The position numbers were made by a program, and so were the translations under genes. This document shows positions 3,338 through 59,927 of a stretch of DNA of 64,000 bases, in pieces. Position 1 is the first letter of the stretch; every line of letters begins with the position of its first letter. The notes under the pieces were generated by a model that saw only the letters and a list, made by a program, of their open reading frames with translations, was not told where the DNA came from and searched no databases. Source of the DNA: a bacterium (lineage in GTDB: Bacteria; Patescibacteriota; Minisyncoccia; Phycocordibacterales; Phycocordibacteraceae); contig JAJZTG010000002.1 in assembly GCA_021849125.1 (NCBI GenBank), forward strand, positions 12,573-76,572. Direction: 5' to 3'.

Positions 3338-3343
3338 ACTCCG

Positions 3344-4414: not shown

Positions 4415-4444
4415 GGTACCACGACCTGCGGCCTACGCCGAGAC

Positions 4445-25759: not shown

Positions 25760-26310
25760 GGTGCAAGGGTTATCGTGATCGAGAACGCGATATTCGTGTC
25801 TTTCGCGTATGCGGATACCGGCAGGTCGGCAGCGCTTACGAACGGTGCGCCTTGGAGCGTAAGCTGATACCCCCTGAGCGCATCTCGTGTCGCTGCCGTA
25901 CCTGATACGAGAAGTTTCCCTTGGTTTTGTCCTGACGCTGGCGTGTACACGAAGCTCGAGAGCGTTATGCCCGGACGCGGCAGCGCGAGCGTAGATCGCA
26001 TGATAGCGCTCACTGAAGGTTTCTTCGCGAGGGCGATGAGCGTTGTCGCGTTCCCCGAGAGCGTCGTAAGGCGCGCAGAAAGCGCGCGTTCATCAGCAGA
26101 AAAATATGAGGTCTTTACGCTAGCGAGATGTGCCTGCTTCGCTCTCTCGCTCCCTAGAAGGAACACGTAGGTCGGAAATAGGAGTGCGCCTGCTGTCACA
26201 AGGCTGAGGTTCATGAGCATAGCCGCGACGACTCCGAGCCGGAGACGATACTCGCGTTTCAGAAGATCTCGACGTGCAGCCGGAAGCAGGTTGGTGAGCT
26301 CGTTATTCAT
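25756..26310 (-). CDS. pilN: type IV pilus assembly protein PilN-like
   Basis: MNNELTNLLPAARRDLLKREYRLRLGVVAAML (a short cytoplasmic tail that binds PilM, then a TM helix). The start is the internal Met at 26308-26310. Confidence 0.55.
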   Translation of the reverse strand: MNNELTNLLPAARRDLLKREYRLRLGVVAAMLMNLSLVTAGALLFPTYVFLLGSERAKQAHLASVKTSYFSADERALSARLTTLSGNATTLIALAKKPSVSAIMRSTLALPRPGITLSSFVYTPASGQNQGKLLVSGTAATRDALRGYQLTLQGAPFVSAADLPVSAYAKDTNIAFSITITLAP

Positions 26311-41726: not shown

Positions 41727-43889
41727 ATGAGAGCGCATCCACGCCACTCCTGGCGGCACACGATCGTCGCTTCCGCGCTTGTCCTCGTCGGAATCGGTTT
41801 CATCGCCTCCGGAAGCATCCTGATCGCGGTCATGGCCGCTCCGGTCCCCGATATCGCTTCGTTTGCGAACCGTCAGGTGGACCAATCGACGAAGATCTAT
41901 GATCGGACCGGCCAGGTTCTTCTCTATGATTACAATCGCGACGCGCGACGCGAGGTAATCCCGCTTTCTGAGATATCCCCTAATGCGATCCAGGCGACGA
42001 TTGCTACCGAGGACTCGAGTTTCTACGAGCATGGAGGGATCCGCTTCACGTCTATCCTCCGCGCGATGATCGTCGACGCGCTCGGTGGCGCGCTTGCCCA
42101 AGGCGGATCTACCATCACGCAACAGGTGGTAAAAAATACGCTCCTTACGAACGAGAAAAGTATTGTACGGAAAATCCACGAATGGGTGCTCGCGATAAAG
42201 CTTGAGCAGGTATACACGAAGGACCAGATAATCGAGACGTACCTGAATAACGTCCCCTATGGGGGCACCCTCTACGGCATCGAAGCAGCATCGGAAGCGT
42301 TTTTCGGCATACCGGCGAAAGACCTCTCTGTGAGCGAATCTGCATATCTCGCAGCAATGATCCAAGCGCCTACTTATTATTCCCCCAACGGAACGCATCG
42401 CGCCGATCTCGATGCGCGTAAAGATTTCGTGCTTGACCGGATGCGCACGCTCGGTTTCTTGAAAGATGATGAGTACGCTCGTGCGAAACAGGAGACGGTC
42501 TCTTTTGCCCCCGCAGGCCACAATTCGATCATCGCGCCCCATTTCGTCTTCTATATCCTCAATCAGATAGAATCGACCTATGGCGCACGAGCGCTCACCT
42601 CAGGACTCAAGGTTACGACCACGCTCGATGCTGATCTCCAGGTGAAGGCTGAGTCGATCGTAAACCAGTACGCGCTCGAGAACGTGAAGAATTTCAACGC
42701 TTCGAACGCTGCGTTGGTCGCTATCGATCCGGGAACCGGACAGATCCTCTCGATGGTCGGTTCACGTGATTTCTTCGACTCTTCTATCGATGGGCAATAT
42801 AACGCGGCTCTCGCTCTGCGCCAGCCAGGATCTACTATGAAACCGTTCGCGTACGCGCTCGCGCTCCTGAAGGGCTATACGCGGGATACGATAGTCTTCG
42901 ACGTCCCGACACAATTCTCCACCTCTTGTCGGCCTTCCGAGACGACGAACTCCACCTCTCCATGCTACGCGCCGGATAATTATGATGGGAAATTCCGTGG
43001 CCCTATGACTTTCGAAACCGCGCTTGCTCAATCCATCAACATTCCGGCTATCAAGGTTGTCTATCTAGCCGGTGTCGCAAACGTCATCAATCTTGCAAAA
43101 TCATTCGGACTTACCTCGCTTGGCAGCGCGGCGCAATACGGCCTTACCCTTGTGCTTGGTGGTGGAGAAGTCCGCCTTCTTGACCTTACTGGTGCTTACG
43201 CGACATTCGCTAATGACGGGATACGGAACTCTGTGACCGGCATCCTTTCTGTCGAAGATACCCGAGGGAGTGTCTTGGAACAGTATGTACCTCAACGGAT
43301 GCAGGTAGTACCTTCGAGCGTTGCTCGAGACATTTCTGGGATGCTCTCTGATGCTCAAGCACGTCTCCCTGAATACCCGCTTGATTCGCCGCTTTCTTTC
43401 CAAGGATACGATGTTGCCGTAAAAACTGGTACCACAAACGATACTCGGGATGCGTGGGTGATCGGATACACTCCTTCTGTTGCGGTAGGAGTGTGGGTTG
43501 GAAACAACAATAACACGCCTATGGTGAAATCAGTTGCAGGATTTATTGCGGCGCCGATGTGGCATGAAGCCATGGCGTACGCTCTTTCAAAGTACCCGAA
43601 GACATATTTTGGTGAGTCGGACGGTATCCCTTCTTCCGTACCGCCTATGCTTCGCGGTAATTGGTATATTCCTGATGCTCAAGGAAACATCGTTCCTCAC
43701 TCTCTTCTATACTGGACGGATAAAAATAATCCTCGTGGCGCTCCTCTTTCGAATCCTGCACAAGATCCTCAATTCTACTATTGGGAATACGGTATTTCCG
43801 CTTGGTATGCATCACATCCGAACCTGTTCACTTCAGGTATCCAGCTTCCTGTGCCGCTCTCTGCAGAAACACCGCTTGTACAGCCGTAA
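41727..43889 (+). CDS. class A penicillin-binding protein (PBP1A; transglycosylase + transpeptidase)
   Basis: N-terminal TM helix. Glycosyltransferase motifs EDSSFYEHGGI and GGSTITQQ. Transpeptidase motifs STMKP and KTGTT. Confidence 0.85.
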   Translation: MRAHPRHSWRHTIVASALVLVGIGFIASGSILIAVMAAPVPDIASFANRQVDQSTKIYDRTGQVLLYDYNRDARREVIPLSEISPNAIQATIATEDSSFYEHGGIRFTSILRAMIVDALGGALAQGGSTITQQVVKNTLLTNEKSIVRKIHEWVLAIKLEQVYTKDQIIETYLNNVPYGGTLYGIEAASEAFFGIPAKDLSVSESAYLAAMIQAPTYYSPNGTHRADLDARKDFVLDRMRTLGFLKDDEYARAKQETVSFAPAGHNSIIAPHFVFYILNQIESTYGARALTSGLKVTTTLDADLQVKAESIVNQYALENVKNFNASNAALVAIDPGTGQILSMVGSRDFFDSSIDGQYNAALALRQPGSTMKPFAYALALLKGYTRDTIVFDVPTQFSTSCRPSETTNSTSPCYAPDNYDGKFRGPMTFETALAQSINIPAIKVVYLAGVANVINLAKSFGLTSLGSAAQYGLTLVLGGGEVRLLDLTGAYATFANDGIRNSVTGILSVEDTRGSVLEQYVPQRMQVVPSSVARDISGMLSDAQARLPEYPLDSPLSFQGYDVAVKTGTTNDTRDAWVIGYTPSVAVGVWVGNNNNTPMVKSVAGFIAAPMWHEAMAYALSKYPKTYFGESDGIPSSVPPMLRGNWYIPDAQGNIVPHSLLYWTDKNNPRGAPLSNPAQDPQFYYWEYGISAWYASHPNLFTSGIQLPVPLSAETPLVQP

Positions 43890-45001: not shown

Positions 45002-45107
45002 CCTTATTAGCCATGTTGATAATGGGGATACCCTATATATCCAGTATATAGGCCATCAAAATACGCTACACGCTTCAATGAACCTGTGGATATGATACGG
45101 GAAAACA
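45002..45107. other. putative oriC element between dnaN and dnaA (DnaA boxes + AT-rich DUE)
   Basis: TTATCAACA (reverse complement of 45015-45023), ATATCCACA (reverse complement of 45085-45093), and an AT-rich atatatccagtatata stretch. A further CTATCCACA lies at 45155-45163. Confidence 0.5.
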
Positions 45108-46457
45108 TCATACAAGCAGTGAGCGGATATCTTGGATCTCTTTTGATAACTCACTATCCACAACAACTTCACGCTTTATCTTCTCGCATGAGTGGATAAC
45201 CGTCGTATGATCACGACCGCCAAGCTTCGTACCGATAGTCGGATAAGAGATATTGAAATCCTCACGAAGGAGATACATGATGATCTGCCTCGGTCGCACG
45301 ACTTCCCTACGGCGCGTCTTCTCATAAATGCTTTCCTCATCGATCCCATAGAATTCAGCGACTTTCCCGACCACATTCTTAACGGAAATGGTCTTTTGCG
45401 GACGGGTGAATGAACGGAGTGATTGGCGTACTTCAGCGATATCCGGCGCCATACCGCGTACCTGTGCATGACAGACGAGGCTATTCACCATACCTTCAAG
45501 TTCCCGGATCGATCCAGGGAGGGTTGTCGCCACATATTCGATAACTTCATCAGAAAGGATGACGCCATGAAGCGCTGCTTTTCTTCGTACGATAGCCATA
45601 CGGGATTCAGGGTCAGGTTCGCCGATGTCGATCGCCATACCGCTTGCAAGCCTGCTCTTTAAACGATCGGCGATATCCGGAATGGATGAAGGCGGGCGGT
45701 CAGAAGAGAACAATATCTGCTTGTTCGTATCATGCAGGGCATTAAAGAGATGGAAAAGCTCCTCTTGCGTCTTTTCTTTCTTGGAGAGGAACTGGATGTC
45801 ATCCATGATAAGGAGATCATACTGCCGGTATTTATCCTTGAAGCGATTCGCGGTGCCAGCTTGAACGGAATCAGTGTAGTCGATAACGAATTTCTCAGAA
45901 GTGAGATAAAACGCCTTACGCCCAGGGAACTGTTTCTTGAACTGGTTACCGATCGCTTGGATGAGGTGGGTCTTCCCTCTCCCGGTATCTCCGTAGATAA
46001 AAAGCGGATTATAGGTGATGCCTGGTCTGGAAAGGACCGCTTGAGCAGCGCTGTAAGCGAGCGTATTGAAAGATCCGATCACGAACGTGTCGAACGTATA
46101 GCGCGGATTCAAATTATCGCTCTTATTTATATAGAATTCTTCGATCGGAAGCTCGATAGCGCCTCGCGTATTCTTTATCTCTTTTGGCGGCTTACGATGC
46201 TCGTCCTTCGCGATAGTGTATTCGATATTCCTGAATTCGTAGGAAACTTCACGGACGATCTTGAGGAGGAGCGTGTGAAATTTCTTTACGTACCAATCCT
46301 TGAAGAATTGGCTTGGTACGCCGATATACACGATGCCATCCTCTATCTTGACGATGAAGCTGTTCTTGAACCACGTATTGAAATTTGCGGGGGATATCGA
46401 CAGTTCGACCTGAGTCAATACATGTTCCCAGAGTTCCTTAGGATTCTGTGCATCCAT
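45108..46457 (-). CDS. dnaA: chromosomal replication initiator DnaA
   Basis: P-loop GDTGRGKTHL, an AAA+ domain and a C-terminal DNA-binding domain (HTTV). The start is the internal Met MDAQNPKELWE. Confidence 0.9.
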   Translation of the reverse strand: MDAQNPKELWEHVLTQVELSISPANFNTWFKNSFIVKIEDGIVYIGVPSQFFKDWYVKKFHTLLLKIVREVSYEFRNIEYTIAKDEHRKPPKEIKNTRGAIELPIEEFYINKSDNLNPRYTFDTFVIGSFNTLAYSAAQAVLSRPGITYNPLFIYGDTGRGKTHLIQAIGNQFKKQFPGRKAFYLTSEKFVIDYTDSVQAGTANRFKDKYRQYDLLIMDDIQFLSKKEKTQEELFHLFNALHDTNKQILFSSDRPPSSIPDIADRLKSRLASGMAIDIGEPDPESRMAIVRRKAALHGVILSDEVIEYVATTLPGSIRELEGMVNSLVCHAQVRGMAPDIAEVRQSLRSFTRPQKTISVKNVVGKVAEFYGIDEESIYEKTRRREVVRPRQIIMYLLREDFNISYPTIGTKLGGRDHTTVIHSCEKIKREVVVDSELSKEIQDIRSLLV

Positions 46458-46556: not shown

Positions 46557-46697
46557 ATGTCTACGAAACGAACGTACCAGCCGAAGAAGCGCAAGCGCGC
46601 AACGACCCATGGTTTCCTCGCTCGGACCAGCACGACCTCAGGTCGTAAGATCGTCCAGAAGCGCCGCCGTGTCGGTCGGGCAAAGCTCGCCGCCTAA
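46557..46697 (+). CDS. rpmH: 50S ribosomal protein L34 (not in ORF track)
   Basis: Translation: [46 protein letters not shown]. Confidence 0.85.
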
Positions 46698-46703
46698 TCC
46701 TCC

Positions 46704-47024
46704 GTGTTCCCGCGCCGAGAACGACTTTCCCGTGCGCAGTTCCCAACCGCCCTTAAAGGCGGCAAAAGGCTCACCTCTGAACATTTTTCGGTCATTTTCC
46801 CTGCAGATACGCGGGGATATGCCGTCGTTATACCAAAAAAGGTCCTACGTCTCGCTTCTGCACGGCACAACCTGAAGCGCCGCATCATCGCAGCGCTCCA
46901 GGAACTTCCTCTTCCCACCGCCCTTATCATTTTTCCGAAAGCTGGAGCCTATGGTGTACACTACAGAGACATGAAAGCCGAGCTTTCCGGCCTTCTCGCG
47001 CAGACGAAACATAACCGACCCTAG
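46704..47024 (+). CDS. rnpA: ribonuclease P protein component
   Basis: It follows rpmH. Basic protein with RRERLSRAQF...VIPKKV. Confidence 0.8.
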   Translation: MFPRRERLSRAQFPTALKGGKRLTSEHFSVIFPADTRGYAVVIPKKVLRLASARHNLKRRIIAALQELPLPTALIIFPKAGAYGVHYRDMKAELSGLLAQTKHNRP

Positions 47025-47026
47025 CC

Positions 47027-47764
47027 GTGATAACAGCCTTTTTTCATACGTTTTTCTATAATCCGATCTATAACGCGCTGGTCACGTTTGTCGCCGTCGT
47101 GCCCGGTTCCGATGTCGGTATCGCGATCATTCTTCTCACGATAGGGATTCGTATCATCCTCCTCCCTTTCTCCTTATCAGCAGCCAGGACACAACGTGCT
47201 ATGAAAGATCTCCAGCCGAAGCTTAAGGAACTAAAGGAGAAGCATAAAGGCAACAGAGAGCAAGAAGCGATTGAGACACTCGCTCTCTACAAAGAGGCGA
47301 ACGTAAGGCCATTTGCGAGCATTTTGATAACCTTCATCCAGATACCTATCCTGCTCGCGCTGTACTGGGTTTTCATACAAGAATCGTTTCCAGCGATCGA
47401 TATGGCGAAGCTCTATGCGCTTACGCCAATACCCGACACGTTCTCGCTCGCATTTCTCGGTCTTATCCCCGTGGCTGAGAAGAGCTTGCTTCTGGCGCTA
47501 CTGGCTGGGGCCACGCAATTTATCTTGGCGGACATGATGATAAAGGGCACGATGAAGCCCACAGAAGATGCTAAAGCACACGATTTTCAGAAGATTATGG
47601 GTCTTCAGCTCAAATACGTATTCCCGTTCCTGATAGGCGCTATTTCATATAGCACCTCAGCGGCGATCGCGCTCTACTTCATCGCGACAAACCTTGCCGG
47701 CTCAGCGCAAGAATGGCACATGCGCCGCATACTCGAGAAAGAAGCGCTTCCTCAGAGCGCGTAG
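47027..47764 (+). CDS. yidC: membrane protein insertase YidC (short Oxa1-like form)
   Basis: Five TM helices and a conserved LLPFS...PILLALYW segment. It sits downstream of rnpA. Confidence 0.8.
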   Translation: MITAFFHTFFYNPIYNALVTFVAVVPGSDVGIAIILLTIGIRIILLPFSLSAARTQRAMKDLQPKLKELKEKHKGNREQEAIETLALYKEANVRPFASILITFIQIPILLALYWVFIQESFPAIDMAKLYALTPIPDTFSLAFLGLIPVAEKSLLLALLAGATQFILADMMIKGTMKPTEDAKAHDFQKIMGLQLKYVFPFLIGAISYSTSAAIALYFIATNLAGSAQEWHMRRILEKEALPQSA

Positions 47765-48951
47765 CTCCAAAGAGAGCCATCATTTTTGTTCGTGAAGACG
47801 AATACGGTGCGAGAAGGGTTGATTGCCGGGGATTCGATATCGAAACTATCTGCAGTTTCTGTCGAAGGATCAAGGACGAGTTGGGCATAGCGGCCCGCGG
47901 TTTCGATGCGCCAGATGCGGTCAGAAAAATGCGCAGCGCCTTGATACCAGTCATCCGGATATTGGAACGCCGCGCTCGGATTTACCGGTACGCCGCAGTA
48001 TACGGATGAGTCATCTGCAGTCCAGACGCACTTATCTGCGATGGTCGCAATCGGGAGCTGCAGAGCAATGTTTGTAGACGTGTCGACGAGCTCCATCTGG
48101 AGTGCGTTGTTCTGGGTGTAACTCACGAGTACGTATTTCCCTGAATGACTTGCAAGCGCCACAAGGCCGAAATGCGGTCCGGCAACCCGAGAGAAAACAC
48201 CCTGACCGTCAACGATAAAAGCGCTCCCGAGTATAGATCCTGAAGGACGGGAAAAGGCTAGGTACTTCCCCCTCCCCGCGTACGAGACGCGAACGGAACT
48301 GAGAGGTGTTGAAAATAGCGACGTCGAATGAGAGCCGTCTATGCGCACACGGGAGACGGTAGACCCGTTTACGCCAGATGAAAGCTCCAAGACCTCGTTC
48401 GTAGAGACGGCGATATCGGTGAGGTTCTGCGGAAGGAAGAAACCCGTGGAGCTCGTCGCAGAAAGAGCATAAGTGTTTACGGTAGAGAGGTCGTCTCCCG
48501 ATAGATACCGCACGAAAGCGACGGAACCATCCGGGAGCCAAGTGGCATTTTGGATGCTCGGGATGGTTTTGCTACTCACGCGCGTAAGCGTCTTACCCCT
48601 GAAGAGGTATGAAAAGACATTACCGCTCGCACGTTCGATGAACTCGATAGAAGTTTCAGGAGACGATGTCGCCCCTCCGGATGTCGTGTCGACCGCAATC
48701 ACCCCAGGCACCACCGGCCCGGCACTGATTTTCGTGAGACGCGTCCCTACTGCAACAGGAGCTTCAAGAGACCCTTGGTCTGGCGTGGTGGCAAAACCCC
48801 CAGTCCCGCCTTGTCCGGCGACAGGAAGGTTCACGCTTCCTGAGGGTGCAACCGACACCGCAGGACCTGACTTCGTGAGGAAGAAATAGATGATACCGCC
48901 GAGTATGAGAGCGGCGATCGCGATTCCAGAGATGATGAGAGAGCGTCGCAT
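47752..48951 (-). CDS. membrane-anchored hypothetical protein with predicted beta-propeller-like ectodomain; last gene of T4SS-like operon
   Basis: N-terminal TM helix. Repetitive beta-strand-rich sequence. Confidence 0.4.
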   Translation of the reverse strand: MRRSLIISGIAIAALILGGIIYFFLTKSGPAVSVAPSGSVNLPVAGQGGTGGFATTPDQGSLEAPVAVGTRLTKISAGPVVPGVIAVDTTSGGATSSPETSIEFIERASGNVFSYLFRGKTLTRVSSKTIPSIQNATWLPDGSVAFVRYLSGDDLSTVNTYALSATSSTGFFLPQNLTDIAVSTNEVLELSSGVNGSTVSRVRIDGSHSTSLFSTPLSSVRVSYAGRGKYLAFSRPSGSILGSAFIVDGQGVFSRVAGPHFGLVALASHSGKYVLVSYTQNNALQMELVDTSTNIALQLPIATIADKCVWTADDSSVYCGVPVNPSAAFQYPDDWYQGAAHFSDRIWRIETAGRYAQLVLDPSTETADSFDIESPAINPSRTVFVFTNKNDGSLWSYAL

Positions 48952-48954
48952 AGG

Positions 48955-49926
48955 CTATTGGACAACTTTGAATCCAGGATTACTGCTACAACCACCCGCC
49001 CCAGTGTTACTGGTGGTACAAGAAAGCGAGATGTTCCAGCAAGATGCGGAGGCTCCTGTCGTCAGTATTTGCAATACTTTCGAGCCGCATGGGGTCTTTA
49101 CGCTACTCATGCACGTAACTCCCTTATCAGACGTGCAGGCAGAGGCAAAATTGACCGTGTCACGTCCGTTATTTGGGTTAGTTTCAGTCGATGCGATGGG
49201 TTGGTAGTAAGAGTAACCAACAATGGCGTTAACCCATCCAGAAACGCCAGATGAAGAGCTTATATCGGCAAAAGCATACGGTCCGGTAGCAGGACCACGT
49301 TCTGTGCTGCATGTCGCTTTGTGCTCGGTCGTAAAGAAAGGCACGTTACCGGAGCCGGTCGTACATTTTGCCGCGAAGTCCTCAGCAGCTTTTTGAGTCG
49401 GGCAAACCGCCGTTTTAAGCAAGGTGCCAGTAACCGTGCAACCCGCAGCTTTGGCAGCGGTGGTTGCAGGATCAGTATTGGACCCGGAACCTGAAGGAGA
49501 TGTCCCAGAAGAAGGAGGCGGAGGGGCATTCAGATCGATAGGCGGAAGATCGAGGGAGAGGTTCAGGATGCTCGGATTGATGAGCGAGAAGACCAAGACC
49601 GGGGAAAGGACAAGGATAAGTCCGAATATCGCCTGCGTGATGCGCTCGCGCCCCTCGGATACTTTCGAGGCACTGCCTTGTGACGAGGAGATCTGGAGAC
49701 CTCCCCAGATGATCTCGATGATGGCAAGCATAGCGGCAAGCCCGATGAGGTACTTATACAGATTGTTAAAGAAGGAAGTCAGTGTCGCTGAGTTTACGAC
49801 GCTTGTCGCATCTCCGCTGGTTAATCCTGGGATCGGAGCAAGCGCTGTGAATCCGTTTGCGAAAGCAGTCGGAGCAAAAGCGACGAAGGAGAGCAAGGCG
49901 ATAAAGAAGATCTTTTTCATGTTCAT
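48955..49926 (-). CDS. VirB2/TrbC pilin-like protein fused to Cys-rich C-terminal domain
   Basis: A signal peptide and two hydrophobic helices (YLIGLAAMLAIIEIIWG and AIFGLILVLSPVLVFSLI), a Pro-rich linker and a C-terminal region with about 14 Cys. Confidence 0.45.
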   Translation of the reverse strand: MNMKKIFFIALLSFVAFAPTAFANGFTALAPIPGLTSGDATSVVNSATLTSFFNNLYKYLIGLAAMLAIIEIIWGGLQISSSQGSASKVSEGRERITQAIFGLILVLSPVLVFSLINPSILNLSLDLPPIDLNAPPPPSSGTSPSGSGSNTDPATTAAKAAGCTVTGTLLKTAVCPTQKAAEDFAAKCTTGSGNVPFFTTEHKATCSTERGPATGPYAFADISSSSGVSGWVNAIVGYSYYQPIASTETNPNNGRDTVNFASACTSDKGVTCMSSVKTPCGSKVLQILTTGASASCWNISLSCTTSNTGAGGCSSNPGFKVVQ

Positions 49927-50927
49927 AAGCCGAAGAAGTTAGTGCTCGGCTTGCTGCCGAAGGACAAAGAGAGCACAGATGTAGCCCCCTCAGAACCGCT
50001 CGCTGAAGCAGTGAGGGATAAAGAAGCAGTCCCTTCCCCGTCCCCTGAAGGCCGCAGGGTGATGAGACTTCCTGTCTGTGCCGGTGATCCGTTCAAGAAC
50101 CAGCGAAGAATAGGGGCCGAGGTTCCTTTAGGAAAAGAGAAAGGTGCTGCATAGAGCGTTGATTCTGAACCGCGTATCGCGTATGACCCTGAGAGAGCGC
50201 GATCGAAACGTACGCCAAGCAGAGGGTCGCTTTCATAGATACGCACCTTCGGAGATGCGGCGTATAGAGACATCGACGCGCCGCCGACCAAGGTCCCGTC
50301 GGCGGTTTTTACCGAAACAGAAACGGTGCGCTCGCGGTATTGCAGCGGCGTGGCAACGACGATGGTCGTTTTCCCGAGTCCAGACGCGCTTGCCAATCGG
50401 GCTCCATCCACGCTCCACGCATACGAGAGGCCAGAGGGATCGATCGCGCGACCGCGCGAGTCTTTGAAAGCAGCGATGGCGACGACACGGATGCTGCCTC
50501 CCATGGGAGGCAGTGCCTTGCCAGCATACAAGGGCGGAGTGGTGGCGATGGGCTCCGCGATGAGAGAGACATCCTCAGGTTGAAGAGTTAGGGATTTCGA
50601 ATACACGGATCCGTTATTCAAAACGATCACGGTTACTTCGACAGGAACACCCGGACCCTTGAGGGTGATGGGTACGGGCCGCACATTTCCTTCGTATACC
50701 TGGGTTCCGTTTACACGAACCCGCAAGGTTGCGCTTGAGAGGTTCGAGGCAGTGGGAAGCGCAGAAATGACCGCCTGACCGTAAGGAAGCGGGTAATCCG
50801 GGGAGACCGTGACAGAGAACAGGTCTCCTCCCGTCGAACCGATTGATGATAGGTCGAACGATTGAGCAAAGGAGTGCGCAGGAAGTGCTAGTACGAGGAA
50901 AGCAGCGATTAAGAGAGATGCACGCAT
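49923..50927 (-). CDS. secreted hypothetical protein (T4SS-like operon)
   Basis: Signal peptide MRASLLIAAFLVLALPAHSFA. Beta-rich. Confidence 0.4.
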   Translation of the reverse strand: MRASLLIAAFLVLALPAHSFAQSFDLSSIGSTGGDLFSVTVSPDYPLPYGQAVISALPTASNLSSATLRVRVNGTQVYEGNVRPVPITLKGPGVPVEVTVIVLNNGSVYSKSLTLQPEDVSLIAEPIATTPPLYAGKALPPMGGSIRVVAIAAFKDSRGRAIDPSGLSYAWSVDGARLASASGLGKTTIVVATPLQYRERTVSVSVKTADGTLVGGASMSLYAASPKVRIYESDPLLGVRFDRALSGSYAIRGSESTLYAAPFSFPKGTSAPILRWFLNGSPAQTGSLITLRPSGDGEGTASLSLTASASGSEGATSVLSLSFGSKPSTNFFGL

Positions 50928-51006
50928 ACGTACAGTATATAGTGTGCCCAAAGGATTTATGTCTCCTTGTGGGCAGCTCTGGGGAATGTCCACAAGGAGG
51001 CGTAAA

Positions 51007-51609
51007 TCACGCTGCTTCTCTCAGAGCCTCGTATTCTTCAGCATTTGCTGCTTGTTGGGCCTGAAAAGCGCGCAATTGCGCGTTTTGTGACTCGCGTAGC
51101 GTTCGTTGTTTCGAGGATACACGTTTTTCATAGGCGCGTTTCGTCGCCTTGTCCTTCTTTATCTGCGCGCTATAGAGTTTTGCCATGGTTCCCGTTAACG
51201 CAGGAAGCGTGCCAACGAGCGGCACTTCGCTCACAAAGAGGCCCCCCATGAGCCAGAGCACATTCGTGGAATTTTCTTTGATAAGGCGTCGGTTCGTAAA
51301 GATGATCAAAAGACAGATGGTCATCCAGCCGATAAGACCTGCCGCCATCGCTAGCACCACTCCGAAGAGCTCGAACGCGCCTGAACCATAAAAACCAGCG
51401 AGCCCGCCGACCACGACGGCACCCACTTTGCCGACGATGCCGCCTCCCAAGGCAGCCTCGGTTGCCAAACCGAGCAGCACGGGCCCGAAAAACCAGAATT
51501 GTTCGAACATGAAACGAATCGCATCGAACACGAGAGCGAGCGCAAGCATCGGGAGCGCCTTCCCCCAGGTCATCGTCTTGGGAGGAGAATCATGCAGGGT
51601 TCGCAGCAT
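51007..51609 (-). CDS. Gly-rich polytopic membrane protein with C-terminal coiled coil (T4SS-like operon; possible VirB6-like)
   Basis: About four TM helices and a KKDKATKRAYEKRV...coiled-coil tail. Confidence 0.4.
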   Translation of the reverse strand: MLRTLHDSPPKTMTWGKALPMLALALVFDAIRFMFEQFWFFGPVLLGLATEAALGGGIVGKVGAVVVGGLAGFYGSGAFELFGVVLAMAAGLIGWMTICLLIIFTNRRLIKENSTNVLWLMGGLFVSEVPLVGTLPALTGTMAKLYSAQIKKDKATKRAYEKRVSSKQRTLRESQNAQLRAFQAQQAANAEEYEALREAA

Positions 51610-53410
51610 GGCGTATCTTCTCCTGCTTTATGGCGAGGAGCTGCGAAGGGTCTGAGGTGATGATCTGATCCTCGGTGTAAGAAGCGACGACTTTGATCGC
51701 GACATGTTTAAGACCTGCGAAGAAGAGTCCCTCCCCTACTCCGGCCTCAAGCAGAAGGTACTTCTCCTCGTCGGTGAGATTGAAGGTCTCTTGGAGGACG
51801 TCGATCGTCGTCGGGGACTGCTTAAGGAGAAGCTGGAGGGATGAGTTGGTGAGGATCGGGCGGCCATACGGGCTCTTCAAGAAGTCCTCGACGTCCTGAG
51901 TGATGGTGCAGACGCCCAGGTAGTACTTACGGCCACGCTTGGCGAGGCTGTAGAGGAATGAGGCAGTGTCGTCGCTCTTCATCATCCACCATGCCTCATC
52001 GATGATAAGGAGGCGTTTCTTGAGATCATGACGCACTGCATTCCAGATGTAGTGCGTGATGATGTACATCGCGACCGGCTTCAGCTCGTCTTCCATGTCG
52101 CGTACGGAGAAGACGGCGAACTGCTGCTTGAGGTCGATGTTGGTCGGCTGGTTCATGAAGCCTGCCCAGGTGCCGCGCGTATATTTGGAAAGCCGTTCGA
52201 TGAGCGATTCGCTTCCCTCCATGCCCGAGAGCACTTGCTCGAAGTCGGAAAGCAGAGGCGGTTCGGCACCGGTGAAATCAGCCTCGCCAGTAATGTCTTT
52301 CAAGGCATAGGTCTCACTGATGGCACGGTCGATGATCGCGTCCTCTTCCGGAGACAGGCCGCCGAGCATGATACGGAAAAGGCCGACAAGCGAGATGATG
52401 TTCGACCGCAGGATGTCTTTCGGATCCTCGTCTTCCTTCACGGGCGGCAGGTCGAAGGGATTGATATGGTCCTGCGACGAAAGCGAAATGCTGAATGAGC
52501 GTCCGCCGGTTGCGGCAGCGAGCTTCTCGTACTCGCGTTCCGGGTCGATCACGATGACGTCCGTGCCGAACATCAAGGAGCGCAGGATCTCGAGCTTCGT
52601 CGCGTAGCTCTTGCCAGAACCGGATTTCGCGAAGACGACCGAGTTGTAGTTCTCGAGCGAGAAGCGATCGAAGAGGATGAGCGAGGAATTGTGGCGGTTG
52701 ATGCCGTAGAGGATGCCGCGATCAGAGGTAAGGTCGAAGGAGACAAACGGGAAGATCGAAGAAAGAGGAGAGGAATTAAGCTTGGAGTTCACCAAGAGCT
52801 CGTCCGTGCCGAGCGGCAGGCACGAACGGAACCCTTGTTCCTGCTGGAAGAGCGCCGGCTTCGTGTAGACGAGCTTCGCGTCGAGAATGCCGCGGATCTC
52901 CCCTTCCGTCTTGTCGATCTCCTCGCGCGTATCGCCGTACAGGGCGAGATAGAGACCTACGTCGAAAAGCTTCTCTTGGGCTTGCTGCAGGTTGTCACGC
53001 AGGCTTTCAAGATCTTGATAGGCGGTATCAAGCATCGGATCACGCACCAGGCCGCGCGATTCACGTTCAGAAATCTGACTTTGCACCTCGGCGACTTTCT
53101 TCTGGAAGCTCCGGAGCGCGGTTTCCGTCTCGATCGGGTGGATGAAGATGGAAACGTCGAGAACCTTATCGAGATCGATGATCGGCGAGAACCAGCTGTC
53201 CGATAGGAAACGCGGATACGAGATGGTATAGAACGTGCGTACGAACTTCTCGCCGAGTTCAAGCTCGCGCGAGCCGATCTTAAGCGCTGTCGGCGCGATC
53301 GTATCGACGAGATCGAGCGTACTCTGCTTGTAGATATCGCGCGGCAAGACCGGCACGATCTCCGGCGCCTCTTCTTTCTGTTTACGATTGAGAAAATCAA
53401 GTAGTGCCAT
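51590..53410 (-). CDS. virB4: VirB4/TrbE/CagE-family T4SS ATPase, C-terminal part (central + ATPase domains)
   Basis: Walker A VFAKSGSGKSYATK and Walker B LLIIDEAWW. Typical VirB4 segments RGLVRDPMLDTAYQDLE and YLGVCTITQD. Confidence 0.8.
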   Translation of the reverse strand: MALLDFLNRKQKEEAPEIVPVLPRDIYKQSTLDLVDTIAPTALKIGSRELELGEKFVRTFYTISYPRFLSDSWFSPIIDLDKVLDVSIFIHPIETETALRSFQKKVAEVQSQISERESRGLVRDPMLDTAYQDLESLRDNLQQAQEKLFDVGLYLALYGDTREEIDKTEGEIRGILDAKLVYTKPALFQQEQGFRSCLPLGTDELLVNSKLNSSPLSSIFPFVSFDLTSDRGILYGINRHNSSLILFDRFSLENYNSVVFAKSGSGKSYATKLEILRSLMFGTDVIVIDPEREYEKLAAATGGRSFSISLSSQDHINPFDLPPVKEDEDPKDILRSNIISLVGLFRIMLGGLSPEEDAIIDRAISETYALKDITGEADFTGAEPPLLSDFEQVLSGMEGSESLIERLSKYTRGTWAGFMNQPTNIDLKQQFAVFSVRDMEDELKPVAMYIITHYIWNAVRHDLKKRLLIIDEAWWMMKSDDTASFLYSLAKRGRKYYLGVCTITQDVEDFLKSPYGRPILTNSSLQLLLKQSPTTIDVLQETFNLTDEEKYLLLEAGVGEGLFFAGLKHVAIKVVASYTEDQIITSDPSQLLAIKQEKIRHAANPA

Positions 53411-53413
53411 AGG

Positions 53414-54043
53414 TTAGGTATCGAGACGGATCGGATTTTCAAGCTCGCCCGGATTGAAGGAACGATACAGAAGCTCGATAACCTCTTCGGTGCCGAGCGG
53501 TACCGCGCGCACGCCGGTTCCCGAGAGCGCCGCGCTTACGAGCGACATGCGTTGTTCGAGCTGCGCGCGGTCCTCTTCGAAGCTGGTCGCGCTTGTCGCT
53601 GCGCTCGCCTCTTTTTTCTGCAAGAAGCCGACCGCGCTCGCCGCCGTGAGTTTCGGCGCATACGGCACGACGATATAGAACGACTTGGTCATGATGTTGG
53701 TCTGATCGGCGAATGAGCGGACGAACTCGATATACTCGCGGAGCTGGATGCGCATGAGCTCGGTCTTCTGTTCAGCCATGCGTTCTCCCATATACGAAAG
53801 ATAGGGACGCAGGTCCATCCGGCGCGAATTGACGATGATCTGGATCGAGAAGTCGAGCGTATTGAGGAAATTCTGAAAACCGAGGATGATCGCGTTCTGT
53901 TCGTCCGCTGACTTCAGGCCGAAGTTGACGGCAGAACAGATAAGGACGCCGCGGTATCCGCCGTCTTTGAGGATGACGATACCGTTCCGGATCTCTTTGA
54001 CCGGGACGAATTGCTGCGTTTTCCCTGCTTGTGCGGTATCCAT
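53414..54043 (-). CDS. VirB4 N-terminal domain encoded as a separate ORF (same frame, separated from the ATPase part by one TAA)
   Basis: NGIVILKDGGYRGVLICSAVNFGLKSADEQNAIILGFQNFLNTLDFSIQIIV resembles the VirB4 N-terminal region. The stop at 53414-53416 is followed by one codon and then the ATG at 53408-53410. Confidence 0.5.
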   Translation of the reverse strand: MDTAQAGKTQQFVPVKEIRNGIVILKDGGYRGVLICSAVNFGLKSADEQNAIILGFQNFLNTLDFSIQIIVNSRRMDLRPYLSYMGERMAEQKTELMRIQLREYIEFVRSFADQTNIMTKSFYIVVPYAPKLTAASAVGFLQKKEASAATSATSFEEDRAQLEQRMSLVSAALSGTGVRAVPLGTEEVIELLYRSFNPGELENPIRLDT

Positions 54044-54048
54044 AGGTG

Positions 54049-54474
54049 TTAGGTCGATCGCGAAACGGGCTCCGAAGGCTTCACGTCAAGCGACCAGGCG
54101 AGCTCGGAAAGTTTTCCGCGCGTGAGCCGTGGCGTGCCGCGTGAGACAGGGGCTACGGGCGCTTCAGCCTTAGCGACAGTCCCCTCCGTAGGCTGTTCCC
54201 CATATTTCCAAAGCAGAAGCTTACGTTTCGTATAGTAATTGAACCCTGCTTCGAGGATCTCGATGAACGGCTTGCCGTTTACTTTATAGAACGCGAGCGC
54301 TGCGCCGAACGCCGCTATCGGTGCAGAAAACAGGAGCGCGAAGAAAAACGGCAGATACGAGAAGAAGATGACACAGAGGCCAGCGGTCCCTGCTATATAG
54401 ATGAACTGCCTTAAGGTAAATGGCCCGATGATCTTATCTTCGACCTCGATGAATTGGGGTACCTGATATTCCAT
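54049..54474 (-). CDS. VirB3/PrgI-like small 2-TM protein
   Basis: 141 aa with two adjacent TM helices, immediately upstream of virB4. Confidence 0.45.
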   Translation of the reverse strand: MEYQVPQFIEVEDKIIGPFTLRQFIYIAGTAGLCVIFFSYLPFFFALLFSAPIAAFGAALAFYKVNGKPFIEILEAGFNYYTKRKLLLWKYGEQPTEGTVAKAEAPVAPVSRGTPRLTRGKLSELAWSLDVKPSEPVSRST

Positions 54475-55839
54475 CTACTGTAGTATACCAGTGAAAGGCT
54501 GCTCTTGGGGCGCTACTGTGCAAGCATCGCACGCGATCACGGCACCTTTCGGAGCCGAACCGCGCGCATACGTGACTGGCGGTACATTTTTTACACGCCA
54601 TGCTTCACGAGCTGCATCCGTGATACGCCACGATTCGATCACTTCCCCGCTCGAAGCGAAGAGCGTGTGATCACCGCGCAAAGCATCGAGGAAAACGCGT
54701 TCATACGCGTCAGGAAGCATCTCGAAATGCTCTGCGTATGAGAATGAAAGCGGGACACGCTCGATGATGTGGTCATATCCCGGCCGCTTCGCGAAAAAAC
54801 ACAGCTCGACACCCTCGTCGGGCTGGAGACGTAAGGTCAGCCTGTTCGCTTTCTGGGTATCTGCGTGACGATAGGTCACGATGATTTCAGTCTTCTTTTC
54901 AGCAAGCGCCTTCCCGGTCGTGAGCGTGATGGGCACATCTTTCCATCGCGGGTCTGAGGAGCGGAGCCGTACTGATGCAAAGGTCTCGACGTTCGAGTCG
55001 GGGTTCCCGACCTCGTCTTTGTACCCTTCATATTGGCCGAGGATGACCCCGTCCGGGTCGACAGCGAGCGTCTTCAGGAGCGCATGCCGTGCTTCGGGGA
55101 TAGCGTGCAGGTCATCTTCCTTCGGAAGCTTCATGAGCGTGAGCGCTGCGAGTTGCAAGAGGTGGCTCTGGATCAGGTCACGTAACGCACCGGTCTGTTC
55201 ATAGAAAGCCGCGCGGTCTTCGATACCGATCGACTCGCTCGCGACGATATCGATACGTTCGATATTCTCGCCGTTCCAGGTGTGTTCGAAAAGCGGATTA
55301 TCGCTTCTGAACACGACGATGTTCTGGACGGTCTCTTTCGCGAGATAGTGGTCGATGCGGTACACCTGTTCGGGTGAGAACGAGCTCTCGACATGAGCGA
55401 CGAGTTCCTCGGCGCTTGCGGAGTCGACCCCGAACGGCTTCTCCAGCAAGAGCTTGGTCGTACGAGCTTTCGACAAGCCGGAGGACCCGAGATGTTCGAT
55501 GATTGGCCAGGCGGTTTTCGGCGGTACGGCGAGATACCAGAGGCGTTGAGCTCCTCCCCCGAGTGCCGCATCAACCTCTTCGAGATGTGCACCGAGCCGC
55601 ATATAGTCGGATGTTTCTTCGAGCGACATAGGGAAAAGTTCAGTGCGCATTTCAAGATACTCGGCATGCTCTGCCTTCTCGAAAAGATCGTGCAGGACGA
55701 CATCGTTCTTGCGGGTGATGCCGATGATTTCGAATTTTTCCGGTAGTACGCCAGCTGCGGCCATTTCGGCTATGGCAGGCAGCAGTTTCCGTCGCGAAAG
55801 ATCGCCAGTGATACCGACAATGATGAGGATGGTCGGCAT
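54475..55839 (-). CDS. zwf: glucose-6-phosphate 1-dehydrogenase
   Basis: GITGDLSRRKLLPA, EKPFG and RIDHYLAKE motifs. Confidence 0.85.
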   Translation of the reverse strand: MPTILIIVGITGDLSRRKLLPAIAEMAAAGVLPEKFEIIGITRKNDVVLHDLFEKAEHAEYLEMRTELFPMSLEETSDYMRLGAHLEEVDAALGGGAQRLWYLAVPPKTAWPIIEHLGSSGLSKARTTKLLLEKPFGVDSASAEELVAHVESSFSPEQVYRIDHYLAKETVQNIVVFRSDNPLFEHTWNGENIERIDIVASESIGIEDRAAFYEQTGALRDLIQSHLLQLAALTLMKLPKEDDLHAIPEARHALLKTLAVDPDGVILGQYEGYKDEVGNPDSNVETFASVRLRSSDPRWKDVPITLTTGKALAEKKTEIIVTYRHADTQKANRLTLRLQPDEGVELCFFAKRPGYDHIIERVPLSFSYAEHFEMLPDAYERVFLDALRGDHTLFASSGEVIESWRITDAAREAWRVKNVPPVTYARGSAPKGAVIACDACTVAPQEQPFTGILQ

Positions 55840-55845
55840 AATGGA

Positions 55846-56478
55846 TCAGGCGGGAGTGCCGGTCAAAAGACTAAAGAGCCAAACGACCAGCTTGAAGAAA
55901 GGTCCCGCAAGAAGAAGCGAAAAGAAGAACAGGAAGAAGATAAGGGCTAGCAGCCCGGTGCTACGGATGCGCTGTTCGAATGCACCCAACCGCGCAGCGA
56001 AAGACCAAGGGAGTGCTGCCCGAAGCGCCGTGTAGCCATCAAGAGGCGGGAACGGTATCAGGTTGAAGAGCCCAAGGAAGAGGTTTACGAACGTGATGGT
56101 CGCGGCGACCGAGAGCGCTTGGGGCGAGAAAAAAGCAGCACCGAAGTGCACGATGAGACCGAATACGACCGCAAGGAAGAGATTGCTGGCTGATCCGGCA
56201 AGCGCGACGAAGGCTTCGCCCCAACGGCGGTTCTTAAGATTGTAGGGGTTATACGGAACCGGCTTTGCCCAGCCGAAGAGGACCGATGAGCCGGAAAAGA
56301 TGAGAAGCGCCGGTATGAGGATAGAACCCATGAGGTCGATATGCGGGAGCGGGTTCAAGGTGAGGCGTCCTGAGAGCCGTGCGGTCGGATCGCCAAGGGC
56401 GTCAGCGGCATAGCCGTGGGACACCTCGTGCACTACGACGGAGAGGATGAGGACAATAAGGGATAGGGTTATGGCCAT
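55846..56478 (-). CDS. site-2 protease (peptidase M50) family membrane metalloprotease
   Basis: HEVSHG (HExxH) and the NLIPFPPLDG motif. Confidence 0.7.
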   Translation of the reverse strand: MAITLSLIVLILSVVVHEVSHGYAADALGDPTARLSGRLTLNPLPHIDLMGSILIPALLIFSGSSVLFGWAKPVPYNPYNLKNRRWGEAFVALAGSASNLFLAVVFGLIVHFGAAFFSPQALSVAATITFVNLFLGLFNLIPFPPLDGYTALRAALPWSFAARLGAFEQRIRSTGLLALIFFLFFFSLLLAGPFFKLVVWLFSLLTGTPA

Positions 56479-57870: not shown

Positions 57871-58476
57871 ATGACGTACTCACCAAAGACATTTAATCTC
57901 CCTACCCTTTCGGGTATCTCGGAGAAACAGGTCAGCGTGCATCTCGGCCTCTATGAAGGCTATGTGAAGCACACGAACCTCATCATGGAGAAGATCAAAG
58001 CGCTCAAGGATGCAGACGCCGAAGGGAATGCCTATCTTATCGCCGAGTTGCGCCGCCGTTTCGGTTTCGAGTTCGATGGCATGCGCATGCACGAGCACTA
58101 CTTCGAACAGCTTGAACACGGCGCGAAGGAATTGAACACAGAAAGCAAGCTAGCCATGGCCGCGGCCGAAAAATACGGTGAACAAGGTCTCGTGGCGCAT
58201 GTAAAAGAAGTGGCTAGTAGTCGCGGCATCGGTTGGGGCGTGGTATACGTTGACCCGATGATCGGGTCGCTCCACACCGTGTTCGTAAACGATCACGAGC
58301 TCGGTCAGCTTGCGGGTCTTCCGATCATCCTCGCGCTCGATCTCTGGGAGCATGCATTCATGGTCGACTATGTGCCGGCCACCAAGAAGGATTATGTCGA
58401 TGCGTTCTTTGCCAACCTCAACTGGGAGGTCGTCGAGAAGCGTTTCGAAGACGCGATGAAGATGAGCGCGACATAA
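57871..58476 (+). CDS. sodA: Fe/Mn superoxide dismutase
   Basis: HLGLYEGYVKHTN, DLWEHAF and YVDAFF motifs. Confidence 0.85.
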   Translation: MTYSPKTFNLPTLSGISEKQVSVHLGLYEGYVKHTNLIMEKIKALKDADAEGNAYLIAELRRRFGFEFDGMRMHEHYFEQLEHGAKELNTESKLAMAAAEKYGEQGLVAHVKEVASSRGIGWGVVYVDPMIGSLHTVFVNDHELGQLAGLPIILALDLWEHAFMVDYVPATKKDYVDAFFANLNWEVVEKRFEDAMKMSAT

Positions 58477-59927
58477 AGCAGCACGACGAGCCATATCGGG
58501 AATAGAGGTATGAGGAAAGCCGCGGCCGGAAGCGCCGCGGCTTTTTCTGCCACCTCTATGATGAATGTGTTTAAGAGATACGCTGGGAACGCGAGTATCG
58601 TGACGAAAAGAGGAGCGATAGACGAGAGAATCAGGCCAGCGAATCCCGCGATAGCGGAGAAGGCCATCGTGAGCGGCACGATCGGCGTGACGATAAGGTT
58701 CGCTGGTACCGCGACGAGCGAAAGGTTGCCGGTCTCGTAAAGAAGAAGCGGCAATACGCTTACCTGCGCAGCGAGCGTAGTCGCAAGCACGCCCCTCAGG
58801 AAGATGCTTTTGATGCGTATAAGCCTCGTTTCGATGAGCGGTGCGAGCCATATGAGACCGGCGGTCGCGGCGACCGAAAGGTCGAAACCAGGATCGAATG
58901 CGAGATAGAGCGGATTGAAAAGAAGCATCAGGAAGACGACGATGAGGAGTGCACGCGAGGCAGCATAGGTACGCCCGGTCGCTCGCGCATAGAGCGCGAT
59001 GAAAGCCATGAGCATTGCGCGGATGGCGGTCGCAGAAGCGCCTGCGATCCCGACAAAGATAAGTACCGCAAGCGCTCCCGCAGCCGTGCTCCATCTGCGA
59101 GAAAGCTTCGTCCGCGAGAACATGAGCAGGACCCACTCCGCGATGACCATGACGTTGTAACCGGAGAGGACGATGATCTGGATGAGACCGCTTCGTGCAA
59201 ATGCGTCCTGGAGCTCGTTACCGAGCCCGGCCTTCCCGCCGATCAGGATACCGCCCGCAAGCGAGCTGTATGGTTCGGGGAGAGCCGATTCGAGTCCGCC
59301 GAGAAACGCATGCTTCGCGCGCGCGAGCATCGCGGGAACCGAATACCAGGGTGCTGGTGCGACCGTATGGATGGAGCCAAAGCTCAAGGTGAAACGCACG
59401 CCGACGCGTTCGAGGTAGCGGTCATAGCGGAAGGGTCGACCGTTGTCCCCCATGAAAGGTTTTGGCACTTCGAGCGTGCCGGTCACATGCACGCGGTCGC
59501 CGACAGAAACGCGCGACGAGCGCGGAGCGACGACCAGCAAGATGGTCGATGTCTTTCCTTCCGAGACGCGCACTTCGACGCGCTGCTTAGCATCGCGCAG
59601 GTCTGGGTCAGCGACCACGATCCCGTCATACGCGACACGTTCCGAGAGGTGTGCCGCAAATGACGTAGGAAGCGGCGTGTCAGCAAGCGACATGCGCAGC
59701 ATGCCGAGTGCTGCGAAAAGGAAGAACACTGCGCCAAGCCCCGTTAGAAAGTTCGAAGACGTACGTTCTAACGGGGTGGGCGAATACGCAGACAAGATCC
59801 TCGGGACAAAAAATAGAAGCGCAGCGAGGAGAAGCGCAAAACAGATCGGTGCCCATCCGAAAGAAAAGATTGAACGCAGGAGGACGCCACCCGCAAACCC
59901 GCTAGTTATCGCGAGCAGGATACCCAT
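58392..59927 (-). CDS. comEC: DNA internalization competence protein ComEC/Rec2 (DUF4131 + competence domains)
   Basis: Polytopic membrane protein. OB-like DUF4131 segment RVEVRVSEGKTSTILLV. Competence-domain helices. Its C-terminus overlaps sodA convergently by 85 nt. Confidence 0.7.
   Translation of the reverse strand: MGILLAITSGFAGGVLLRSIFSFGWAPICFALLLAALLFFVPRILSAYSPTPLERTSSNFLTGLGAVFFLFAALGMLRMSLADTPLPTSFAAHLSERVAYDGIVVADPDLRDAKQRVEVRVSEGKTSTILLVVAPRSSRVSVGDRVHVTGTLEVPKPFMGDNGRPFRYDRYLERVGVRFTLSFGSIHTVAPAPWYSVPAMLARAKHAFLGGLESALPEPYSSLAGGILIGGKAGLGNELQDAFARSGLIQIIVLSGYNVMVIAEWVLLMFSRTKLSRRWSTAAGALAVLIFVGIAGASATAIRAMLMAFIALYARATGRTYAASRALLIVVFLMLLFNPLYLAFDPGFDLSVAATAGLIWLAPLIETRLIRIKSIFLRGVLATTLAAQVSVLPLLLYETGNLSLVAVPANLIVTPIVPLTMAFSAIAGFAGLILSSIAPLFVTILAFPAYLLNTFIIEVAEKAAALPAAAFLIPLFPIWLVVLLYVALIFIASSKRFSTTSQLRLAKNAST

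Follow-up and report, generated by a model that had tools for sequence, protein, structure and literature searches.

What purpose could the core of a conjugation machine serve in a bacterium of the Patescibacteria when it lies beside the replication origin and neither a relaxase nor a coupling protein accompanies it? The question is raised by seven closely spaced open reading frames (ORFs; g1 to g7, Table 1) on the minus strand, at 47752-54474, of a 64,000-nucleotide stretch of contig JAJZTG010000002.1 (assembly GCA_021849125.1, positions 12,573 to 76,572; hereafter the window), which belongs to a Kaiserbacteria-like genome of the Paceibacteria. We are highly confident that these genes form a chromosomal, conjugation-derived type IV secretion system (T4SS) operon of the Patescibacteria type. 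A preliminary description of the locus, written from the letters of the DNA, had seen seven packed or overlapping genes directly after zwf that would encode a VirB3/PrgI-like protein, VirB4 in two pieces, a polytopic glycine-rich membrane protein with a coiled-coil tail, a secreted beta-rich protein, a VirB2/TrbC-like pilin with a long cysteine-rich extension and a membrane-anchored beta-propeller. Each of these calls proved right, coordinates and spacing included: searches with hidden Markov models matched g1, g2, g3 and g6 to PrgI, TrsD/VirB4, VirB4 and pilin models, and structure prediction gave beta-sandwiches for g5 and a transmembrane helix with seven blades for g7.

The operon is compact. 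No nucleotide separates the start of g1 from the stop codon of zwf, and all internal junctions are overlaps (20 nt for g3/g4, 4 nt for g5/g6) or gaps of at most 5 nt (5 nt for g1/g2, 3 nt for g2/g3, 3 nt for g6/g7), the g4-g5 junction excepted, while the 3' end of g7 overlaps that of the convergent yidC by 13 nt. The GC content of the operon (0.54 to 0.56) is similar to that of its flanks. Between 46.4 and 57 kb, promoter-like sites occur at the level of shuffled sequences (6 found, 4.9 expected) and terminator-like sites are somewhat more frequent (16, with 9.4 expected), none of them marking a clear operon boundary.

One line of evidence for a T4SS comes from its motor. The first protein, g1, matches the PrgI family of Pfam (PF12666; E=8.4e-11, 42.7 bits with a cut-off of 27), and g3 matches the CD1110-type VirB4 model NF045971 at 4.6e-113 and 379 bits, above the cut-off of 325, over positions 181-733 of the 752-position profile. 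Further matches of g3 are to the TraC and VirB4_CagE models (1e-55 and 1e-34), to Pfam P-loop_TraG (6e-25) and, in the PDB, to the C-terminal domain of VirB4 (4AG5, E=2.4e-42) and to R388 TrwK (2.7e-6); its Walker A motif lies at residue 261, and a Walker B-like LLIIDEAWW is readable in the sequence. The preceding protein, g2, covers positions 1-164 of NF045971 and 102-233 of NF045975 and is also recognised by the TrsD/TraD model NF041427 (E=2e-5), with no match of its sequence in the PDB. Together, g2 and g3 thus tile a single full-length VirB4 profile (1-164 and 181-733 of 752).

Table 1. Positions and assignments of the operon genes, of neighbouring features in the window and of genes inserted between trsD and virB4 in related loci (the latter in coordinates of the locus named)
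Feature	Position	Strand	Assignment or context	Basis
g1	54049..54474	-	PrgI/VirB3-like protein, two-transmembrane-helix hairpin, 141 aa	Pfam PF12666
g2	53414..54043	-	TrsD-like protein, free-standing VirB4 N-terminal domain, 209 aa	NF045971, NF045975, NF041427
g3	51590..53410	-	VirB4 ATPase body, Gram-positive / MPF-FATA (mating-pair formation class FATA) type, 606 aa	NF045971
g4	51007..51609	-	Small polytopic membrane protein with Gly-rich insert, coiled-coil cytoplasmic tail and ssrA-tag-like C-terminus (AANAEEYEALREAA)	
g5	49923..50993	-	Secreted/surface protein, signal peptide and three tandem beta-sandwich domains like those of immunoglobulins (Ig) or fibronectin type III (FnIII)	
g6	48955..49926	-	VirB2-like T4SS pilin with Pro/Ser/Thr linker and 10-Cys C-terminal domain	PF18895
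g7	47752..48951	-	Membrane-anchored extracytoplasmic 7-bladed beta-propeller	Transmembrane helix and predicted fold
yidC	47027-47764	+	Adjoins operon	
rnpA	46704-47024	+	Between DnaA-box cluster and operon	
rpmH	~46557-46697	+	Between DnaA-box cluster and operon	
dnaA	45108-46610	-	Between DnaA-box cluster and operon	
DnaA-box cluster	45014-45199		Likely oriC	
zwf	54475-56478		Stretch upstream of g1, with zwf between PrgI and the M50-like peptidase gene	
PBP1	41727-43889		Only Transgly match of the window	Pfam
PilM	26303-27400	-	Type IV pilus gene, three small ORFs downstream (24933-27400)	
PilB-type ATPase	37331-39004	+	With MshEN domain	
ComEC	58392-59927	-		
RecJ	60506-62218	-		
Aminoacyl-tRNA synthetase, class I	8439-11819	-	1126 aa, tRNA-synt_1 and Anticodon_1, with His_Phos_1 at residues 499-664	
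AOX-like ORF	20852-21562	+	Weak match to alternative oxidase (AOX)	PF01786, E=2e-8
23S_rRNA_IVP insertion, L042	~4312-4757		Between trsD and virB4	Pfam
23S_rRNA_IVP insertion, L069	~9512-10001		Between trsD and virB4	Pfam
23S_rRNA_IVP insertion, L071	~2972-3420		Between trsD and virB4	Pfam

The second line of evidence is the persistence of the locus in related genomes. Scanning a genome collection with g3 yielded 556 relatives, and the best 80 of these, ranked by VirB4 similarity (loci L001 to L080), were compared with the window. All 80 are from uncultured, metagenome-assembled genomes with 74 to 94% identity in g3, and wherever their titles name a taxon it is one of the Patescibacteria or candidate phyla radiation (CPR; Paceibacterota, Kaiserbacteria, Parcubacteria and others), about a dozen saying just "bacterium". 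The same gene order recurs across these 80 genomes: PrgI-TrsD-VirB4-g4-g5-pilin-g7, then yidC in the other orientation, and after it dnaA and dnaN. No related locus of sufficient reach is without the yidC-dnaA-dnaN neighbourhood. PrgI, at 40 to 72% identity, immediately precedes TrsD/VirB4 in 76 of the 80 loci, and the remaining four end at a contig edge. At the position of g5 the relatives encode a protein of ~330 aa with a signal peptide, at that of g7 a protein of ~400 aa with a single transmembrane helix. Among loci L001 to L056, it is solely in L006 and in the genome studied here that zwf stands between an M50-like peptidase gene and PrgI; in other close relatives the peptidase gene is immediately upstream of PrgI.

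Across the 52 loci with all markers, median identity to the proteins of the window falls from VirB4 (80%) over DnaA (70%), TrsD (59%), DnaN (53%), PrgI (51%) and YidC (42%) to the pilin (39%), g7 (36%) and g5 (33%). VirB4 surpasses DnaA in every one of these 52 loci, a comparison that favours VirB4 somewhat because the loci had been ranked by VirB4 similarity, and the surface components are down at 25 to 40% identity. The motor therefore behaves as a core housekeeping protein, and the extracytoplasmic parts evolve fast.

The same loci explain why VirB4 comes in two pieces. In the window, g2 and g3 share a reading frame, with a TAA and one further codon between them (...ACC TAA CCT ATG...). TrsD and VirB4 are, however, separate ORFs in all 80 related loci. 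The first ORF ends in TAA, TAG or TGA depending on the locus, the distance to the second varies (mostly 1-16 nt), as does the frame of one relative to the other, and three loci carry a complete 23S_rRNA_IVP gene (four-helix-bundle, bAvd-like; Pfam E ~1e-38) exactly between the two. The split is therefore an ancient and genuine two-gene arrangement, not a lesion; read-through, a recoding site or a pseudogene at the in-frame TAA is ruled out by the variable junctions and the inserted gene. A two-gene organisation of TrsD and VirB4 is familiar from Gram-positive systems of the pGO1 type. According to PMC12102498, TrsD is the T4SS component met most often in Patescibacteria.

The preliminary description had seen no VirD4, relaxase, VirB11 or VirB8/9/10 and had concluded that this is no canonical conjugation module, which agrees with our Pfam scans of most of the window's larger ORFs: these revealed no relaxase, VirD4/TcpA coupling protein, VirB11, VirB8/9/10 or VirB1 in the 64 kb and hence no relaxase or coupling protein with the cluster, while no search for an origin of transfer (oriT) was made. 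A Walker A motif is present in just five ORFs of the window (TsaE, PilB, RuvB, DnaA and VirB4), which leaves no other candidate for a coupling protein. The operon proteins match neither VirB9 nor VirB10 (Pfam, NCBIfam) and hold no transglycosylase, CHAP or M23 domain (Pfam).

These observations decide against two readings that would deny the locus a current role as a secretion apparatus. The first sees in the cluster what is left of a conjugative element that once integrated near the origin by chance and is now decaying. It can draw on VirB4, TrsD and PrgI of the conjugative MPF-FATA type, on several canonical parts not being present and on an in-frame TAA between g2 and g3 that could be taken for a lesion. 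Against it stand the same order beside yidC, dnaA and dnaN in every related locus of sufficient reach, a VirB4 more conserved than DnaA, seven intact ORFs and a split kept in 80 of 80 loci, and the region has no integrase, repeats or compositional anomaly. Synteny and conservation effectively refute this explanation, which we regard as highly improbable. Even closer to nil are the chances that g3 is the ATPase of some other system of the FtsK/HerA type with unrelated neighbours, as the preliminary description had considered. This idea can draw on weak secondary Pfam matches of g3 to DUF87/HerA (E=5e-7) and AAA_10, but these are dwarfed by the VirB4 CD1110 equivalog score, the TraC, VirB4_CagE and 4AG5 matches, and PrgI and a T4SS pilin score above Pfam thresholds in the same operon; the profile and PDB matches thus refute it, and the VirB4 assignment stands.

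Of the surface components, the pilin is recognised by a Pfam model, with residues 47-108 of g6 matching PF18895 T4SS_pilin (E=5.6e-8, 33.2 bits with a cut-off of 26.6). Its core, comprising the signal peptide, two hydrophobic helices and an INPxILNL motif, is kept in orthologues. The C-terminal extension (residues ~113-323, with 10 Cys in the protein of the window) ranges from 13 to 294 aa in orthologues and is hypervariable to the point of not being alignable, and its number of Cys residues is even in all orthologues but one. Because of this variability in length and sequence and the even Cys number, the sequences suggest that the extension is an extracellular, disulfide-bonded and fast-diversifying display domain or adhesin fused to the pilin. 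In the adjacent g5, a signal peptide precedes three Ig/FnIII-like sandwiches in tandem (AlphaFold2, mean predicted confidence pLDDT 70.5); the ATG at 50927 is its probable true start. A relationship of g5 to VirB8 or VirB9 was considered and rejected, its structural neighbours being generic Ig, FnIII and PKD domains and neither of those two proteins. The protein ends in a near-invariant ...NFFGL-COOH, with F323, G324, G333 and L334 invariant in 61 aligned sequences, and this end may serve in anchoring or interaction. In the predicted structure of g7, a transmembrane helix (residues 2-27) and a disordered linker (27-69) precede a 7-bladed propeller (70-399). Neither g5 nor g7 gave a match to the NTF2-like fold of VirB8, their folds being Ig-like sandwiches and the propeller.

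There remains g4, a polytopic protein encoded next to VirB4. Searched by itself, it finds no counterpart in Pfam, NCBIfam or the PDB; 28 orthologues have no Pfam match either, and a profile built from them matches no PDB chain. An assignment of g4 as VirB6 was considered, and none of these searches supports it. A small polytopic membrane ORF was called right after VirB4 in 49 related loci, and the family comprises at least 263 clusters at 50% identity. Its conserved core consists of a transmembrane helix with a near-invariant Asp and a Pro-rich hydrophobic segment (SEVPxxGxxPALT) with basic residues on either side, followed by a variable coiled-coil tail whose C-terminal ~40 residues hold a motif resembling the ssrA tag of transfer-messenger RNA (tmRNA): AAND..[YF] ... 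EEIPE..[RK].AA-COOH. The g4 of the window ends in ...QQAANAEEYEALREAA, and examples of orthologues end in ...AANDEEYAQAANDEKYDAEEIPERVPRAA and ...AANDEDYSDEEIPAETREAA; for comparison, the ssrA tag is AANDENYALAA in E. coli and AANDNFAEEFAVAA in Caulobacter. A C-terminal "-AA" is found in 24 of 50 positional g4 orthologues as opposed to ~0.5% of other ORFs (only 31 of the 1,320 ORFs of the same loci end in this way, most of the 31 being g4) and in 80 of 150 cluster representatives of at most 50% mutual identity. The string AAND..[YF] occurs 11 times in 471,604 residues, and ten of these cases are in g4, 14-49 residues from the end. With ARAGORN, no tmRNA gene was found in the window or the 80 loci for comparison with this tail, and a literature search on tag peptides of CPR bacteria returned nothing useful. 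As a testable lead rather than a conclusion, we suggest that the tail may carry its own degron or act in docking. One could go further and view g4 as a family, known so far only from Patescibacteria, whose ssrA-mimicking tail would either mark the protein for ClpXP, FtsH or Lon or dock onto VirB4/TrsD, coupling assembly of the machine to regulated proteolysis, for instance when cells change between a free-living and a host-attached state, with g4, g5 and g7 as a Paceibacteria-specific envelope module in place of VirB6, VirB8 and adhesins; taken as a whole, we consider this combination improbable.

How does the operon relate to known systems? The preliminary description had likened it to minimal VirB4-centred systems of small-genome episymbionts, and it indeed belongs with the T4SS of the Patescibacteria clade (PMC10633639, PMC12102498). 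In S. epibionticum, the T4SS encoded by SEML1_0006-0019 has Gram-positive-like subunits and pilins without a coupling protein or relaxase, and epibiotic growth is not possible without it (Wang et al. 2023, PMC10633639). Across the phylum, VirB4 was found in 2,417 of 3,035 genomes as a monophyletic clade nested in MPF-FATA, with TrsD, PrgI/VirB3 and PF18895/VirB2-like pilins near virB4 and almost no relaxases, and the T4SS of Paceibacteria lies close to dnaA, dnaN, rnpA and rpmH, for which a gene-dosage rationale was proposed (Quinonero-Coronel et al. 2025, PMC12102498). The locus described here shares the MPF-FATA-type VirB4 with adjacent TrsD, PrgI/VirB3 and PF18895 pilin, the lack of a nearby relaxase or coupling protein, the chromosomal site by dnaA, dnaN, rnpA and rpmH, and a monoderm organisation without VirB7/9/10. 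Since its parts, the missing relaxase and the near-origin position all match these two studies, the finding was already known, the idea of gene dosage was published before, and the locus adds nothing to the basic discovery; merely some details are new, namely the variability of the pilin extension, the fold assignments of g5 and g7 and, relative to published descriptions, the ssrA-like C-terminus of g4. Unlike the common state in Saccharimonadia, where two to 11 short pilins are arrayed, there is one pilin gene with a long Cys-rich extension, and unlike in published Patescibacteria systems there are no recognisable VirB6, VirB1 or peptidase genes beside virB4. Instead, the operon includes three conserved accessory genes of Paceibacteria type (g4, g5 and g7) that match nothing in Pfam or NCBIfam and for which PMC12102498 names no counterpart profile or family.

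Among the conjugation systems of Gram-positive cocci, the Trs system of pGO1/pSK41 and the Tra system of pIP501 come close, being monoderm and having, in this order, a VirB3-like protein, a separate TrsD-like domain and a VirB4 body (TrsC-TrsD-TrsE and TraC-TraD-TraE); yet they are mobile, lack a VirB2-like pilin and possess a relaxase, a type IV coupling protein (T4CP), a VirB1-type hydrolase, VirB8-fold proteins and a VirB6-like TraL. With the Prg/Pcf system of pCF10, the operon has the PrgI family protein in common and a CD1110/PrgJ-like relative of VirB4, but VirB4 is a single polypeptide in pCF10, and PrgH (VirB6), PrgK (VirB1), PrgL (VirB8), PcfC (T4CP) and the adhesin PrgB have no detectable counterpart here. 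Carriage by a mobile element is not supported for our locus, given its fixed synteny with core genes in relatives and a GC content like that of the flanks. ComB of Helicobacter pylori and the archaeal Ced system are likewise centred on VirB4 without a relaxase and set a precedent for inward transport; ComB, however, is a diderm system with VirB7/9/10, and no CedA-like protein was identified here.

While the identities of the parts, their conservation and their context are directly supported, we infer from the parts and from established T4SS biology how the apparatus might assemble a pilus, which roles g4, g5 and g7 might play and what might be transported. With high confidence, we trace the operon to a monoderm conjugation apparatus of the MPF-FATA type that has shed its relaxase and coupling protein and is now a core operon, fixed near the origin and passed on vertically. 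In the most likely mechanism, PrgI/VirB3 would anchor the TrsD-VirB4 ATPase complex at the cytoplasmic membrane, where g4, with its cytoplasmic tail ending in the ssrA-like motif, could be the membrane platform that VirB6 provides elsewhere. Studies of Gram-negative T4SSs established VirB4 as a pilin dislocase and assembly ATPase. Here, VirB4 would pull the signal-peptide-processed g6 pilin out of the membrane and polymerise it into a filament or conduit decorated with the variable, disulfide-rich C-terminal domain on the outside, and the Ig domains of g5 and the tethered propeller g7 could stand in for VirB8 and adhesins as the part that spans the wall or touches the host. The output of such a machine would be contact and exchange with a host cell rather than conjugative DNA export. 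The chances that a pilus or contact function of this kind is the core activity appear roughly balanced to us. Besides the tilt toward VirB4 in the comparison with DnaA, several points weigh against this explanation as a whole. The role of the T4SS has been called "completely unknown" even in Saccharibacteria (PMC11665869), and no system of Paceibacteria has been studied experimentally. No VirB6, VirB8 or VirB1 homologue is recognisable in the operon, which makes the channel architecture a guess, and g4, cast as the platform, matches no VirB6 model. An extension of 200 aa may keep the pilin from polymerising as VirB2 does, and a T4CP or relaxase, not seen among the scanned ORFs of the 64-kb window, may sit elsewhere in the genome.

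Two further activities overlap with the pilus and contact reading as alternatives to it. Effector delivery, pilus conduits and uptake of DNA or nutrients have all been put forward as speculation in the literature, which gives the function of these T4SSs as unknown (2025 review PMC12857230; 2024 perspective PMC11665869). Delivery of effector proteins to the bacterial host by a machine that needs no coupling protein, in the way of Bordetella Ptl and Brucella VirB, was favoured among such speculations in PMC10633639 and PMC11665869; protein-secreting T4SSs without T4CP do exist (PMC12102498, PMC12857230), and the pairing of a fast-evolving surface with an ultra-conserved motor is as expected of a weapon or tool at the host interface. 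Given that no candidate effector lies in or beside the operon, the Pfam-scanned neighbours all being housekeeping genes, and that neither a secretion signal nor a chaperone was identified, we are inclined to doubt that this is what the machine does. Conversely, it might import DNA or other nucleic acid like ComB or Ced, drawing host DNA or nucleotides into a cell unable to make nucleotides, an idea raised in PMC11665869. With no relaxase or T4CP among the scanned ORFs, export of processed DNA is unlikely; ComEC, RecJ, PilM and PilB are encoded in the same origin-proximal 64 kb, and members of the class ABY1 have comF, recG and radA located together with the T4SS (PMC12102498). Yet g3 scores far under the cut-offs of the CedB and CedD models (32 and 24 bits, cut-offs 700 and 600), and the operon is without a recognisable DNA-binding component. 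In addition, according to the account of PMC10633639 in PMC12857230, deletion of comEC in S. epibionticum abolishes competence and not viability, whereas the T4SS is essential, so that on this account its essential role does not run via ComEC, and ComEC-dependent uptake has been excluded as the essential role (PMC12857230, PMC11665869). Import is therefore unlikely in our judgement.

The position of the operon relative to the replication origin can be given more precisely than before. Four near-consensus DnaA boxes are clustered within 186 bp in or beside the dnaA-dnaN spacer and are the likely oriC; over the whole window DnaA boxes are not enriched (8 as compared with 6.4 expected), so that the clustering alone is informative. 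The cumulative GC skew has its minimum and turn at ~44-48 kb. Judged by the box cluster and the skew turn, ~2.6 kb separate the origin from g7, where the operon ends, and ~9 kb separate it from the operon's start. The preliminary description had placed the operon ~300 bp from yidC/rnpA/rpmH/oriC, which is right in that yidC, rnpA and rpmH adjoin it and has to be corrected for oriC. With its start set at 46610, the longest dnaA ORF reaches into rpmH on the other strand. Translation of dnaA probably begins at an internal Met at ~46454 instead, which would leave a divergent dnaA/rpmH promoter region of ~100 nt.

The Pfam-scanned neighbours encode, among others, aminoacyl-tRNA synthetases, Pol I, RuvABC, PBP1, ThyA, Dcd and MurE-like proteins. 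The T4SS shares these origin-proximal 64 kb with type IV pilus genes, ComEC and RecJ. A class I aminoacyl-tRNA synthetase of the window carries an unusual insertion, its His_Phos_1 domain following directly after the first stretch that matches the catalytic-domain profile (residues 16-494) and preceding the anticodon-binding domain. Another ORF weakly matches alternative oxidase, an odd match for a lineage generally described as being without a respiratory chain.

The T4SS of Patescibacteria occurs in ~80% of CPR genomes, and no T4SS before it had been shown to be essential to its own carrier. It is a prime candidate for how ultra-small episymbionts obtain what they need from their hosts. For this system, the locus provides a clean Paceibacteria reference in which a fold or family is given for each gene and a measured contrast between a motor conserved like a housekeeping gene and surface parts that diversify. 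It also offers two testable handles, the hypervariable disulfide-rich domain fused to the pilin and the ssrA-like tail of g4.

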